64,000 nucleotides of DNA, from the IMG/VR virus record IMGVR_UViG_3300028533_000484, positions 1-64,000 of that record. One strand, given 5' to 3'. Shown piece by piece: positions 48,668-53,788 of this stretch. The notes beneath the pieces were generated by a model. That model made no database searches, was not told the DNA's origin, and worked only from the letters and a program-made list of their open reading frames with translations. The position numbers and the translations under genes were made by a program. The first letter of the stretch is position 1; every line of letters starts with the position of its first letter. This stretch comes from a virus (taxonomy: Duplodnaviria; Caudoviricetes).

Positions 48668-49453
48668 TTGATTTTAGAATTGAAGAAATTCACTGAAGAA
48701 CAATATATCAAGGCTAAAGAGGAATTTTACAAAAAGCCTGGTATTCCAGATATAGAATTGGAATTGGAAGGATATCAAAAAGAATTGTTACTTAAAAACA
48801 ATTTTAATATCCTTCCTCAGTTTCAAAAAACATTAGCTGTTTATTCGAAATCCCTTTTATTGCAAAGACTTTCTGTACTAGGTGACTATATTGAACCTGA
48901 AAAAGTTGAAGAGTTGTCCGATTTAGCTGCAGAAAACTTCATTAAAAGATACTTTAGAAACGATGATCCAATCGTAGGTGCCTCTTTCGCAGGAATTTTA
49001 CAATTCAAAGTAAAAGAAGTTCTGTCAATCTACTTTAAGAGTTCTGCTATTGAATCTAATGTATCTCTTGACACTGAGGTAGGAAAAGCTACTGGCAATA
49101 GTTCACTAACAGTTGAACAAATTCTTGCATACAAAGGTTATGAGGATAGAACTACAGATGATCTAGATCCTCAAATAAGTTATGAGGATTCTGTAGAAGA
49201 TATACTTGCAAAGATTCAGGACGAATGCGAATTGTTAAAAAAGATTAATAAGAATAAAAACTTGAATAAGTACTTTTTACAATACCTTGTCTATTTATGT
49301 ATACTTCAATCTTCAAGATTGGAAAAGAGATTAAATACTATCTCAGGTCAGGCTGTTAAGCTCATCTTTGATGACGAGGGAAGTATTAATTCCATTCTTC
49401 CAATCCTTGAAAGTTCGCTATTAGATATTTCCGAAAGAATTATCGGTTATTAA
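48668..49453 (+). CDS. Possible sigma-like (late) transcription factor
   Basis: ELSDLAAENFIKRY...ASFAGILQFKVKEVL...VSLD resembles sigma region 2-3. Confidence 0.35.
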   Translation: MILELKKFTEEQYIKAKEEFYKKPGIPDIELELEGYQKELLLKNNFNILPQFQKTLAVYSKSLLLQRLSVLGDYIEPEKVEELSDLAAENFIKRYFRNDDPIVGASFAGILQFKVKEVLSIYFKSSAIESNVSLDTEVGKATGNSSLTVEQILAYKGYEDRTTDDLDPQISYEDSVEDILAKIQDECELLKKINKNKNLNKYFLQYLVYLCILQSSRLEKRLNTISGQAVKLIFDDEGSINSILPILESSLLDISERIIGY

Positions 49454-50931
49454 AACTGAAAGTTTAATTTATCTAACTTTTCTTGAATGCTTGCTTTCTT
49501 CTCGTATTTGGTATTTATCCATTTCGTAGAAGGAGCAAATTCAAGATCGTATTTAAGCAACAAAGCTAAACATTCTGCACAAGTATCAGAAGCATCTTTC
49601 GCATTTACTCCTAATTGAGAAGTTTCCCAACTTGTATCCTCAGACTCATTACAAACCTTTCCCTTAAAGTGATCTACCTTTATTGTACCGGATTCACGTT
49701 TCGTCCAGTGAATAGATCTTAGATTGTTCTTTAAGAAAACATTTTTACCTGCAAAGAATCTTTCATGAGTAATGTAGTCAATTAAAGCTTGATATGGTTC
49801 ATTCTTTTTATCTGCAGAAATATAATCGATTGGAATTCCACGTCTTTTTAAAGCCTGTCTAGTTGCATCAGATTGGAAATTATCGAAATTGACCATACCT
49901 AAATTGATGTTTCCTAAATCAATTAAGTCTAGAATAAAACATTTAATAGCTTCTAGATTTATTTTTGTACCTCCTGTAGGCACAAGCATAATAGTAAAAT
50001 CAACTACCATTACATTCATTGTATCAGACGGTCCATCTTTTGTATTTACATACTCCCAGTGAGCCATTGTAATAGCAGTAGCGTCTCCTGATGTAGATTG
50101 ATCGACTGCTAAGACACGTTTTGCACCAGGCTCTCGATAGAACATGTAATCTGTGTTGAATTTAACAAAGAACTGATCCTTAATTTTATCCCAAATAAGT
50201 CCTTCAGGTTTCAAATCTGCATCGGCAACAATTGCAGTATATATGTTTCTAAGATCATTGTCAAATATATTTTCAATTGTACTACCAGCTTGGAAAATTC
50301 TATCAGATGAACCTGCAGGAATACCAGCCCAGTCTCGTAAAAATTCAACAGGGTTTTGAATTGCAAGAGACATTAAGTTGATTTGTCCAGTAGGTTTAAT
50401 ATCGCGTCTAGGACACCAAACAAGATCTAAAGGATCGTACAAAGCGGCTTCTGCATCTGTTTTACATGCTTTTGGAGGTTCTGATTTACCACCTTTGTAA
50501 CACTGGAATCCAACATCCCAGTTGTGCACTTCTCTACCTTTTGCATCAAAAAACTCTGGAAACTCTTTTTGAAAATAGTCCCATTTAGCACCTAGTACAC
50601 AGTACCATTTTGGATCGTATATAGCCTCTTCCCAAATCCATTTATCAATTGGAGACTCCATCGAAAAAGGAGAAGAGTCTATCATATATCTTCCTAAGTA
50701 GTGGTTGTTCATACGAGAATCAACACGTTGACAAGCCTTATCAAAAAACGATTTAATCTGCTCTTTTGTCCATCCGTTCTGCTCCCACCAAGCCAGCTCG
50801 GTAAAGACTGCTGCAATAATTGTATTATGAGTTAATATTTTTTCGTCAGTAACATACATTTCATCTTTAGCAGACACTTTTATGCACTGACATTCTTCTT
50901 TTCCTACATATTTTATAGACTTAATTTTCAT
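49450..50931 (-). CDS. terL: Terminase large subunit, C-terminal fragment, preceded by a 36-aa C-intein
   Basis: MKIKSIK...CQCIKV...LTHN|T, then Walker B-like IIAAVFTE; RNase H-like nuclease LAVDQS..GD, FDNFQS and KDASD. Confidence 0.85.
   Translation of the reverse strand: MKIKSIKYVGKEECQCIKVSAKDEMYVTDEKILTHNTIIAAVFTELAWWEQNGWTKEQIKSFFDKACQRVDSRMNNHYLGRYMIDSSPFSMESPIDKWIWEEAIYDPKWYCVLGAKWDYFQKEFPEFFDAKGREVHNWDVGFQCYKGGKSEPPKACKTDAEAALYDPLDLVWCPRRDIKPTGQINLMSLAIQNPVEFLRDWAGIPAGSSDRIFQAGSTIENIFDNDLRNIYTAIVADADLKPEGLIWDKIKDQFFVKFNTDYMFYREPGAKRVLAVDQSTSGDATAITMAHWEYVNTKDGPSDTMNVMVVDFTIMLVPTGGTKINLEAIKCFILDLIDLGNINLGMVNFDNFQSDATRQALKRRGIPIDYISADKKNEPYQALIDYITHERFFAGKNVFLKNNLRSIHWTKRESGTIKVDHFKGKVCNESEDTSWETSQLGVNAKDASDTCAECLALLLKYDLEFAPSTKWINTKYEKKASIQEKLDKLNFQF
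50824..50931 (-). other. Split intein C-part (blocks F and G)
   Basis: Ends THN; +1 residue is Thr. Confidence 0.92.
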
Positions 50932-50985
50932 TTATATAAATTAGTGAATAACTCTGTTTCGTTCCGTTAAACTATAATATATATT

Positions 50986-52689: not shown

Positions 52690-53017
52690 CCTCTGGTGCA
52701 TTAGACTCATCATAAATCTCTATTTCTTTTCCTTCCTTTAACCAATCTATCAACTGCAAAGTATTTACAACCTGCCAGTTCCATTCTCCTTTTTCATTTT
52801 TATCTATTGCAACTTTCCACAAATGGTTGTCAGACGATCTTACTTTTCTACCATCATCTAGCTCAATTTCAAAAATATCTCTTTTACCTTGAGGGAATAT
52901 ACCTATTACTTCTGTTTCACCTTCTGTAGGGGATTTTATTTTATCTCCCAATTGAACATCTTTCATTTCGTAATAGGTACCATCTGCTTTCATTATTTTA
53001 GAATACATTGGTTGAGC
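52679..53017 (-). other. Split intein N-part (Ala1, blocks A and B)
   Basis: AQPMYSKI..DG...MKDVQLGD.I..P...V...FPQG....FEI...DGRKV.SS.NHLW. Confidence 0.92.
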
Positions 53018-53788
53018 ATTTCCCAACAAGTGTCCTTCAGTAGACATCATCTTTAACTGAAGATTGTTTCTAAACAACATTCTAGCAGAACCGCGACCTG
53101 CTGTTGAATAAATAATTTTACTACAAGAAGGATCTAGTTTATCTGCGTTAACAACATCGTCACGACGACCAACTTTTTCAAATATTGGACTTTGCTCAAT
53201 AAACTGCTCAAAAGGAGTACCTAACAAGTCCCATACTTTACCTAAACTATAACTGGCTAAAGCTACACAATAACTTGTCATCGCAGAATGCCCCAATAGC
53301 TTAAAAGGTTCTCTCATCAAACAAAAGTGAACCATATCATAGGATACGCACAAGTTGGAAAGCAAGGATTTTCCCCAGCCGATACTGGTTGAAAGAGCTA
53401 AACCTCTTTTAGGATTCAATGGATTTGGATCCATGAATTCGCAAAATGCTTTTTTAACATTAGGCCATAAACCTTCAGCTTGTGCACCTATCCATTCTGG
53501 AGTTAAATATTCTTCGGGAGTTGGAGGTTTTCTTTTATAAGATAATCTCCATCCTTCATTTGCAATTAAATCCTTATAATCGTTGTTTAAATCCGCAGTA
53601 GCTAACCAGTTTAATGCAGCTCTAATATTTCCAATACCAACCGACTCTATTTCAGGTCTTTCTAAAGCTTTTGGATCACCAGCTAAAGCATCAATAAGAA
53701 TATCTGCTAAATTGTCGTCAAATGTTTGGAAATGCATATTCTTATCATTTAACTTTTTTGCTTCTGCTAATCTCAGTGTGTTACTCAT
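52679..53788 (-). CDS. terL: Terminase large subunit, N-terminal ATPase fragment, followed by a 112-aa N-intein
   Basis: Walker A SIGWGKS; LLGN|AQPMYSKI... intein block A; DNHLW block B. Confidence 0.85.
   Translation of the reverse strand: MSNTLRLAEAKKLNDKNMHFQTFDDNLADILIDALAGDPKALERPEIESVGIGNIRAALNWLATADLNNDYKDLIANEGWRLSYKRKPPTPEEYLTPEWIGAQAEGLWPNVKKAFCEFMDPNPLNPKRGLALSTSIGWGKSLLSNLCVSYDMVHFCLMREPFKLLGHSAMTSYCVALASYSLGKVWDLLGTPFEQFIEQSPIFEKVGRRDDVVNADKLDPSCSKIIYSTAGRGSARMLFRNNLQLKMMSTEGHLLGNAQPMYSKIMKADGTYYEMKDVQLGDKIKSPTEGETEVIGIFPQGKRDIFEIELDDGRKVRSSDNHLWKVAIDKNEKGEWNWQVVNTLQLIDWLKEGKEIEIYDESNAPEVKL

Follow-up and report, generated by a model that had tools for sequence, protein, structure and literature searches.

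The window, a stretch of 64,000 nucleotides belonging to the 140-kb record of a huge gut phage, holds two minus-strand open reading frames that appear to be the halves of a large terminase gene (terL), and between them, on the opposite strand, lies the gene for a putative homing endonuclease. The features of the locus, with the intein and terminase parts named as interpreted below, are as follows.

49450-50931, minus strand: TerL-C open reading frame, 493 aa
49450..50823, minus strand: TerL C-extein, residues 258-714, 89% identity to the uninterrupted homolog P0001
50824..50931, minus strand: C-intein fragment (IntC), 36 aa, with its own ATG, a block F Cys (CQCI) and a terminal THN
50939..50945, minus strand: ACTAATT box, 7 nt before the TerL-C ATG
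50986-52689, plus strand: putative homing endonuclease open reading frame, 567 aa, free-standing and antisense to the terL halves (phrog_3339, E 1.5e-88)
51778..52137, plus strand: Vsr-like (EDxHD) nuclease core of the endonuclease, residues ~265-384, motif ELD..IEFDG..WH
52156..52686, plus strand: GNAT or phage Mu Mom-like C-terminal domain of the endonuclease, residues ~391-567
52679-53788, minus strand: TerL-N open reading frame, 369 aa
52679..53017, minus strand: N-intein fragment (IntN), 112 aa plus stop codon, starting AQPMYSK (Ala-Gln-Pro), with block B SDNHLW
53018..53788, minus strand: TerL N-extein, residues 1-257, 91% identity to residues 1-258 of P0001
53366-53380, minus strand: Walker A motif GWGKS, N-extein residues 137-141
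53797..53803, minus strand: ACTAAAT box, 8 nt before the TerL-N ATG
53832..53854, minus strand: terminator-like hairpin between the upstream gene and the TerL-N box

The Pfam, NCBIfam and PHROG models do not recognize the extein as TerL, and a profile of 24 full-length homologs found no match among PDB sequences, so that a fold search was needed to identify the protein; phmmer of TerL-C against the PDB sequences gave nothing useful, and megablast of the locus against GenBank phages found no match. When an AF2 model of P0001, the uninterrupted, 89%-identical homolog, was searched against the PDB, all 37 Foldseek matches at E<=0.001 were large terminases, with the TerL proteins of D6E, HK97, T4 and Sf6 and TerL nuclease domains matched at E 2.4e-10 and below. 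Annotated Gordonia phage terminases were also matched by the C-extein in tblastn, down to E 6e-10. The Walker A sequence GWGKS is invariant, and the C-extein comprises a beta strand (258-264), the invariant Glu266, a DSS at 306-308 and the nuclease domain. Judged from the structural model, each minus-strand ORF encodes one half of a large terminase, an ASCE ATPase with Walker A followed by a C-terminal RNase H-like nuclease domain.

The uninterrupted P0001 is 714 aa long, which equals the summed extein lengths (257+457), and the terL of a second relative, L085, is gapless and codon-for-codon collinear with the joined exteins, with GGA AAT|ACA ATT encoding GN|TI at the junction and N257|T258 as the joining point of the halves. 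This gapless collinearity with uninterrupted relatives fixes the intein boundaries, and it bears out the original prediction that TerL-N ends in a 112-aa N-intein beginning with Ala and that TerL-C begins with a 36-aa C-intein ending THN|T. The IntN fragment ends in APEVKL before the stop codon and the C half opens with an ATG of its own (MKIKS), the break in the intein lying between block B and block F. Both candidates for Walker B, the strand 258-264 with Glu266 or Asp306, lie in the C half, so the split does part Walker A from the downstream motifs, as had been proposed.

A record that CheckV scores as about 35% complete is a fragment, and it could be supposed that the divided gene is a decaying copy and that an intact terminase in the unsampled ~65% of the genome does the work. 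Against this, both halves are intact ORFs, without frameshifts relative to an uninterrupted homolog to which they are 89-91% identical, neither a Terminase_6N gene nor a second terL was found in the 140-kb record, and the identical split, with the same fragment ends, is kept in dozens of relatives on contigs of up to 425 kb. We therefore regard a decaying copy as very improbable.

The first residue of the intein is Ala258 of TerL-N, the residue after the terminal THN of IntC (+1) is Thr, and the fragments together carry the Trp/Cys/Thr triplet that defines class 3 inteins (PMC2807308, PMC7891396): a Trp two residues past the block B His (B:12), a Cys at F:4, which is Cys16 of the C fragment, and a Thr at G:5. 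IntC aligns with the C-terminal part of the cis intein of a contiguous relative, P0139, and P0139 in turn gives a weak match (E 0.025) to the solved class 3 Msm DnaB intein 6bs8, in which the motifs HLW, CQCI and THN are in register with the Trp, the catalytic Cys and the THN of 6bs8, a likeness obtained through this relative and not from the window's own sequence. In the P0139 alignments the Cys F:4 column coincides with the catalytic Cys of 6bs8 and with residue 107 of gp41-1_WCT. The class 3 signature that had been read from HLW, CQCI and Thr thus stands, with its columns matched to 6bs8 via P0139 and conserved in relatives. The window's copy of the N fragment is free of Cys. IntN is acidic (net charge -7) and the start of IntC is basic (+3 over 20 aa), so that the two are complementary in charge.

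Among the PDB entries IntN matched the gp41-1 intein (E 2e-7, about one-third identical over 64 aa), and P0139 aligned with gp41-1 from end to end (E 2e-8). The gp41-1 intein, the closest solved relative, shares with the terL intein its split point, its terminal THN and its type of locus, but it belongs to class 1: where the terL intein has Ala1, Trp B:12 and Cys F:4, gp41-1 has Cys1, Phe and Asp. A class 1 intein has Cys or Ser at position 1 and Asp at F:4, and here Ala1 and Cys F:4 stand in their place. By its sequence, then, the intein is kin to gp41-1, and yet the first step of class 1 splicing would be unusable to it. This Ala1/Trp/Cys triple difference is exactly the change that failed when it was engineered into gp41-1 (6riz, PMC7664689), where grafting of C1A and WCT gave no productive splicing and mainly cleavage, and because that graft failed, a class 3 motif alone is no guarantee of class 3 chemistry.

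The failed graft, together with the loss of the usual first nucleophile through Ala1, lends something to a reading in which the intein halves only hold the TerL halves together non-covalently, or only cleave, leaving a two-chain terminase that is never ligated. Conservation among the relatives argues against it. The intein family counts at least 49 cluster representatives; of 49 relatives, 47 have Ala1 and 48 have HxW, while Cys F:4 and Thr+1 are each present in 28 of 28 and THN in 27 of 28. The block F Cys, the block B His and Trp, THN and Thr+1 have been kept over deep divergence, with synonymous sites saturated, and docking needs none of them. In comparisons from which the L084 extein row, offset by one codon, was left out, IntN has a pN of 0.14-0.15 and a pS of 0.63-0.80, or a dN/dS of about 0.05-0.12, which by these sequence estimates is purifying selection. 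In addition, the break in TerL falls, in the AF2 model, just where one of the core beta strands of the ATPase begins, and the uninterrupted relatives are exactly collinear with the exteins, with no linker. Docking or cleavage without ligation is therefore unlikely in our view.

Splicing could also proceed without a block F thioester, with Thr+1 attacking the N-terminal junction directly in a class 2-like manner or with some other residue acting. Class 2 inteins can likewise have Ala at position 1, and two relatives, P0140 and P0141, have Ser1 with the same Trp, while inteins of the same family at neighboring sites appear to begin with Ser, which would place class 1-like chemistry nearby. Known class 2 inteins use Cys at +1, and here the residue is Thr; moreover, the F:4 Cys that is present in every relative with a C fragment counted above forms the class 3 triplet together with the Trp and Thr, and it aligns to the catalytic Cys column of 6bs8. 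We consider another route of this kind quite unlikely.

Whether the halves are joined as protein or as RNA has to be weighed as well, since in related gut jumbo phages split terL genes have been attributed to group I introns, with RNA splicing shown for some (PMC12880540). If a group I or group II intron, or trans-splicing of RNA, removed the spacer, a single precursor with a contiguous mini-intein would result, and the distant relative P0139 does have a contiguous mini-intein at the same site. However, Rfam scans of 49000-54300, run with the gathering threshold and again with a cutoff of E<=10, found no group I or group II intron, and the spacer is almost wholly antisense ORF, with 54-105 nt of non-coding sequence and no room for a ribozyme. 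In an allele in which the endonuclease segment is replaced by 68 nt, seen both in a run whose listing reads "DNA?" and in a contig from an RNA library (runs X2, X3), the RNA-library contig retains the 68-letter spacer; from the protein ends of relatives we infer that this endonuclease-less allele is still split. One relative, L070, is split, with SD and ATG but without the endonuclease, and in four others (L084 and L088-L090) the N-intein piece is present with no TerL-C within about 5-6 kb, a distance that in L084 and L090 counts against removal of a spacer from one transcript. The C half also begins at a conserved ATG of its own (MKIKS or MPKIKS), preceded by a promoter-like box. With no intron found, the 68-nt form apparently present as DNA, and no C half within about 5-6 kb in some relatives, joining of the TerL halves at the protein level is most likely, and RNA-level removal of the spacer is very improbable.

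The promoter-like boxes lie where they had been described, the ACTAATT at 7 nt and the ACTAAAT at 8 nt before their ATGs. The ACTAAWT motif occurs 53 times genome-wide, in 25 cases within 40 nt upstream of long ORFs, and a sigma-70 promoter scan showed no excess (16 found, 17.1 expected from shuffles). Since the two TerL halves have separate ATGs and separate ACTAAWT boxes, each is probably expressed independently. The ACTAATT box of TerL-C lies inside the segment that is absent from alleles without the endonuclease.

The plus-strand ORF overlaps the TerL-N stop codon by 11 nt at its 3' end; gene callers used in other records start it at the ATG at 51037, and the Atlas record and P0193 begin at residue 18. 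For this protein phmmer against PDB sequences gave nothing useful and the Pfam Vsr match reaches only E 0.086, but its AF2 model (pLDDT 90) is informative. The nuclease core superposes by VIA-align with Z 13.0 on 3hrl and with Z 10.8 on the catalytic domain of I-Bth0305I (3r3p; 96 of 98 residues aligned, 23% identity), both supporting the earlier assignment of a Hef/Vsr-like endonuclease between the halves on the opposite strand, and across 29 homologs D302, E313 and H320 never vary and E272 hardly does. The C-terminal domain finds Mu Mom (8bv8, E 2.6e-5) as its best Foldseek match and gives VIA-align Z 12.6-13.6 to GNAT acetyltransferases and Mom. As modeled, the ORF is a Vsr-like (EDxHD) homing endonuclease with an added GNAT/Mom-like domain. 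It resembles I-Bth0305I and the Hef-type EDxHD endonucleases (Taylor et al. 2011, PMC3239194) in its nuclease fold, its conserved acidic and His residues and the helical DNA-binding modules N-terminal to the nuclease, and it differs from I-Bth0305I in the extra C-terminal domain of ~180 aa and in being encoded on the strand opposite to the interrupted gene. Neither the intein nor the endonuclease was found a second time in the 140-kb record. Among near-identical strains (contigs 95-99% alike) the endonuclease is present or absent, a polymorphism that is consistent with mobility.

Taken together, we consider it likely that the locus is a fractured terL with a split class-3-type mini-intein that ligates the halves into TerL at the protein level, with a selfish antisense endonuclease between them. 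The gene would be cut between Asn257 and Thr258 by the naturally split mini-intein, whose fragments IntN and IntC would associate into a HINT fold. Because position 1 is Ala, splicing should follow the class 3 route, in which Cys16 of block F would attack the Asn257-Ala1 bond to give a branched thioester, helped by the block B His and Trp and the block G Thr; the N-extein would then be handed to Thr+1, the terminal Asn would cyclize, and an O-to-N acyl shift would yield the intact 714-aa TerL with the junction ...LLGN-TIIAAV.... The predicted spliced junction peptide is ...EGHLLGN-TIIAAVFTELAWW... (also given as ...EGHLLGN-TIIAAVFTE...). Only after splicing would Walker A from the N half stand on one chain with Glu266, DSS and the nuclease domain from the C half. 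The endonuclease would be a separate selfish element that probably spreads the cassette into alleles lacking it.

That such an intein may be workable is suggested by AceL NrdHF, which is likewise split and of class 3, carries its Cys on the C fragment, and splices well (PMC7891396). [quoted passage not shown] 2020, PMC7891396). The two systems are alike in that AceL NrdHF also lies on a phage-like contig from a metagenome, in a fractured gene whose halves flank a free-standing endonuclease (PMC7891396), begins with Ala1, has the block F catalytic Cys on a short C fragment, and is split at the typical point (98+48 aa, compared with 112+36 aa for the terL intein). They differ in that AceL NrdHF has a deviant MCT and lacks two conserved His, whereas the terL intein has a canonical WCT and THN, in the host gene (nrdHF vs terL), in the endonuclease (GIY-YIG vs Vsr-like and antisense), and in that AceL NrdHF as described is a single rare case whereas the terL intein belongs to the large family counted above. 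A phmmer search with the N half found no similarity to AceL NrdHF at E<=10.

Fractured phage genes with split inteins and free-standing endonucleases are known, as had been stated, from the loci of Dassa et al. (2009), which include a phage terminase at one locus and Vsr-like endonucleases in half (PMC2677866). The cis class 3 inteins, those of mycobacteriophage Bethlehem DnaB, Msm and Mch DnaB and actinophage TerL (PMC2807308, PMC6195587, bioRxiv 10.1101/2025.01.02.630785), share with the terL intein a non-nucleophilic residue 1, the WCT, the THN and a bias toward phage genes, with TerL a common host, but they are contiguous and mostly carry an in-frame LAGLIDADG domain, whereas the terL intein occupies two genes with a separate antisense endonuclease gene. 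What is new here is a split class 3 intein in which WCT and THN are canonical, the kinship of this intein to gp41-1, and the large family of such inteins at many terL sites.

Beyond this site, it is somewhat probable that the terL of a huge gut and rumen phage clade hosts a radiation of related class-3-type split inteins at many positions. The intein sites in terL would lie at about residues 141 (inside Walker A), 167, 173, 188, 219, 239, 257 and 275, and the radiation would include Ser1 variants as well as atypical splits (N fragment of ~62 aa, C fragment of ~142 aa). In some phages TerL is apparently encoded in at least four genes, one of which contributes an extein of just six residues, SAMTSY, flanked by a C-intein and an N-intein; should every one of them splice, it would amount to an ordered multi-fragment ligation by mutually orthogonal class 3 split inteins. 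Were the radiation real, split class 3 inteins would be common in the gut and rumen phage niche and not "very rare," and the Ala1 and Ser1 forms beside gp41-1 would be a record of one lineage switching from class 1 to class 3. DNA packaging in an abundant gut phage group appears to require protein trans-splicing.

Protein engineering relies heavily on split inteins, and the terL split inteins are candidate orthogonal ligation tools. The only characterized natural split class 3 intein is atypical (MCT, without the conserved His), and the terL intein has the full canonical WCT/THN site; as the nearest natural relative of gp41-1, its comparison with that intein lists the "compensatory" changes that class 3 chemistry may need.

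Strain-level presence or absence is also seen for a second insertion, at the Walker A site, and because both vary in this way between strains, the endonuclease and the Walker A-site insertion appear to be mobile now.

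The large terminase gene (terL) is encoded as two minus-strand halves, TerL-N and TerL-C, with a homing endonuclease ORF on the opposite strand between them, and this predicted three-ORF layout is borne out by the ORF coordinates:

52679-53788, minus strand, TerL-N, 369 aa
50986-52689, plus strand, homing endonuclease ORF, 567 aa
49450-50931, minus strand, TerL-C, 493 aa

The 3' end of TerL-N is overlapped by 11 nt by the endonuclease ORF, whose GTG start is 54 nt from the TerL-C ATG, or 105 nt with the ATG start at 51037 suggested by the Atlas record and by the 550-aa homolog P0193. 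The fractured terL is real and was read well in the original prediction, but its kind is already known: the intein at site 257 (terL break N257|T258) adds a new, canonical example to the split class 3 inteins, and both the fractured-gene layout and the endonuclease family have precedents. A 2009 study (PMC2677866) already described fractured phage genes, a terminase among them, that carry split inteins together with free-standing endonucleases of the GIY-YIG or Vsr-like type. A definition of class 3 chemistry followed in 2010 (PMC2807308), and actinophage TerL commonly hosts cis-splicing inteins of class 3 (bioRxiv 10.1101/2025.01.02.630785). The suggestion that a naturally split class 3 intein might be a new kind does not hold, since AceL NrdHF had already been characterised; the authors of that work, who found 0 split forms among the 1,701 class 3 inteins of nr, described such forms as very rare (PMC7891396). 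AceL NrdHF has MCT and is missing conserved His residues, whereas the window intein has the canonical WCT, for which a full-text literature search of incomplete coverage found no other report in a split class 3 intein. Grafting of C1A and WCT onto gp41-1, the class 1 split intein that is the closest solved relative, gave an inactive protein (6riz; PMC7664689; PMC12245125).

The Pfam, NCBIfam and PHROG family libraries did not recognise the terminase extein, and the identity of the host gene as the large terminase is upheld by agreement between uninterrupted homologs, fold matches and tblastn. Searching for homologs of the C half turned up uninterrupted proteins of ~700-715 aa; one of them, P0001, is 89% identical and has 714 residues, exactly 257+457. 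P0001 was modelled with AlphaFold using 24 full-length homologs (mean pLDDT 82.9), and each of the 37 Foldseek matches to the model at E<=0.001 is a large terminase or the ATPase or nuclease domain of one, including D6E (2.4e-10), HK97, T4 gp17 and Sf6, and tblastn with the C half gave matches annotated as Gordonia and Rhodococcus phage terminases, down to E 6e-10. The joined exteins align without gaps, codon for codon, with the uninterrupted terL of a 403-kb contig (L085), at 84% nucleotide identity and with 648 of 714 residues identical, the junction reading GGA AAT | ACA ATT (...LLGN|TIIAAV...). This collinearity therefore sets the N-intein at 112 aa starting from Ala and the C-intein at 36 aa ending in THN, with Thr at +1. 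The invariant Walker A motif GWGKS (residues 137-141) is on the N half, and the C half holds the beta strand 258-264 with invariant Glu266, the invariant Asp306-Ser307 and the entire nuclease domain, so that both Walker B candidates (Glu266 and Asp306) are downstream of the break, which separates Walker A from Walker B as predicted.

All elements of the proposed class 3 signature (Ala1, HLW in block B, Cys in block F and Thr in block G) are present, and from its sequence we infer class 3 chemistry for the site-257 intein. A more distant TerL relative, P0139, has a contiguous mini-intein at site 257. Its alignment with gp41-1 spans the full length (E 2e-8) and that with 6bs8, the Msm DnaB intein of class 3, is weak (E 0.025); the terminal THN, the block F Cys and the Trp that follows the block B His occupy matching columns. 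Among site-257 cluster representatives, position 1 is Ala in 47/49 and Ser in 2/49, HxW is found in 48/49, Cys F:4 in 28/28, THN in 27/28 and Thr+1 in 28/28. The N-intein fragment is under purifying selection, with pN of 0.14-0.15 and pS of 0.63-0.80 against five relatives and similar values (pN 0.10, pS 0.63) for the extein beside it. The N fragment is acidic, with a net charge of -7, and the C fragment opens with 20 residues that are basic (+3), opposite charges that resemble those of other split inteins. At site 257, P0140 and P0141 have Ser at position 1 with the block B Trp kept, and some same-family inteins at sites 167 and 173 have Ser1 with both the block B Trp and the block F Cys kept.

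Removal of the endonuclease region at the RNA level, to give a contiguous intein, had been raised as an alternative to a truly split intein. Rfam models of group I and II introns had no match in the window at gathering thresholds, nor any in 49000-54300 when the cut-off was relaxed to E<=10, and the spacer between the halves could not accommodate a ribozyme. Contigs from public runs were also compared with the locus, the runs containing the stretch being labelled as metagenome or as animal gut and faeces metagenomes; X1 and X2 are listed as 'DNA?', and X3 is an RNA-library contig. X1, with a main contig listed as >=99% alike, has the same arrangement as the window, and in this contig and X3 there is an extra 1,649-nt insertion at 53365/53370, absent from the window, at the TerL Walker A site (K140|S141). 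X2 and X3, both 95-99% alike, have 68 letters in place of 50918-52682, and since X2 shows this, an endonuclease-less allele exists as DNA; the ACTAATT box preceding the C half is part of the endonuclease cassette. L070, a relative from IMG/VR, is split in the same way but has no endonuclease, only a ~350 nt spacer and a Shine-Dalgarno sequence (SD) plus ATG; in L065 a homologous endonuclease lies between intein halves of a different site, on the same strand. Four metagenome relatives (L084, L088-L090) have no TerL-C within ~5-6 kb either side of the piece ending in the site-257 N-intein, which is followed by unrelated genes, and RNA cis-splicing is an unlikely explanation for them. In L084 (6001-13104) and L090 (6401-12519), a conserved minus-strand gene of 246-248 aa comes after the N-terminal terL piece, and with no C half within that distance the terL halves are encoded at separate loci.

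The breadth of the intein family is the part that deserves follow-up. Related block F Cys inteins, split or contiguous but in the majority split, are found at many other terL sites in relatives, and several of the N fragments there begin with a non-nucleophilic residue or Ser. At the Walker A site, relatives have atypically split inteins in which the N fragment is ~62 aa long and begins with A, F, D or M and the C fragment has ~142 aa. In L090 (5872-7123), L089, L091 and the relatives P0100-P0131, terL is broken further: one ORF has a C-intein in front of a six-residue extein (SAMTSY) and an N-intein behind it, and in the next ORF a C-intein (ending ..KN|C) precedes TerL residues 174-257, which lead into the site-257 N-intein, such that at least four polypeptides would be needed to make up TerL.

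The endonuclease matches phrog_3339 'homing endonuclease' (E 1.5e-88) and belongs to a family of >978 members, some with precomputed Pfam PF24308, PF18741 or PF25680. Its predicted Hef/Vsr-like character is supported by the AlphaFold model (pLDDT 90), in which residues 265-384 align structurally with 3hrl, an endonuclease-like protein (Z 13.0, rmsd 1.9), and with 3r3p, the catalytic domain of I-Bth0305I (Z 10.8, 96/98 residues aligned, 23% identity), placing the modelled core in the Vsr-like EDxHD family, which includes phage Hef proteins according to Taylor et al. (PMC3239194); D302, E313 and H320 are invariant among homologs. Unexpectedly, residues 391-567 (window 52156-52686 (+)) adopt a GNAT fold in the model, with phage Mu Mom as top Foldseek match (E 2.6e-5) and VIA-align Z up to 13.6. 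This C-terminal domain (DUF7487) is kept in hundreds of phage homologs, and DNA binding or a DNA-modifying activity may be its role.

The box predicted before the ATG of each terL half, ACTAAWT, is present at both, with an SD at neither. The IMG/VR virus record has 140,446 bases, of which the window covers the first 64 kb, and holds 53 copies. Of these, 25 lie no more than 40 nt ahead of long ATG ORFs, mostly 5-10 nt before the ATG. Across the record the motif is enriched 16- to 20-fold directly upstream of start codons. Two settings are seen, 5-10 nt before an ATG without SD or 10-15 nt before AGGAG, and the box looks like a candidate phage promoter element that would give leaderless or short-leader mRNAs. 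Examples in the window are:

45914 (+), 45893 (-), 50945 (-), 53803 (-) and 58554 (+), ACTAAWT boxes

GC content is 33%, and the CheckV completeness of the record, 35%, implies a genome of ~400 kb; contigs of up to 425 kb carry relatives of the studied genes. Upstream of terL-N, the gene at 53876-54472 (-) encodes a 198-aa protein with an extremely acidic first half, including a long D/E run, and a basic tail with four near-repeats of RVARAKRIAEAKKR. Elsewhere in the window, a 467-aa ORF (30028-31431 (+)) matches the PHROG transposase family phrog_506 (E 1.2e-88).
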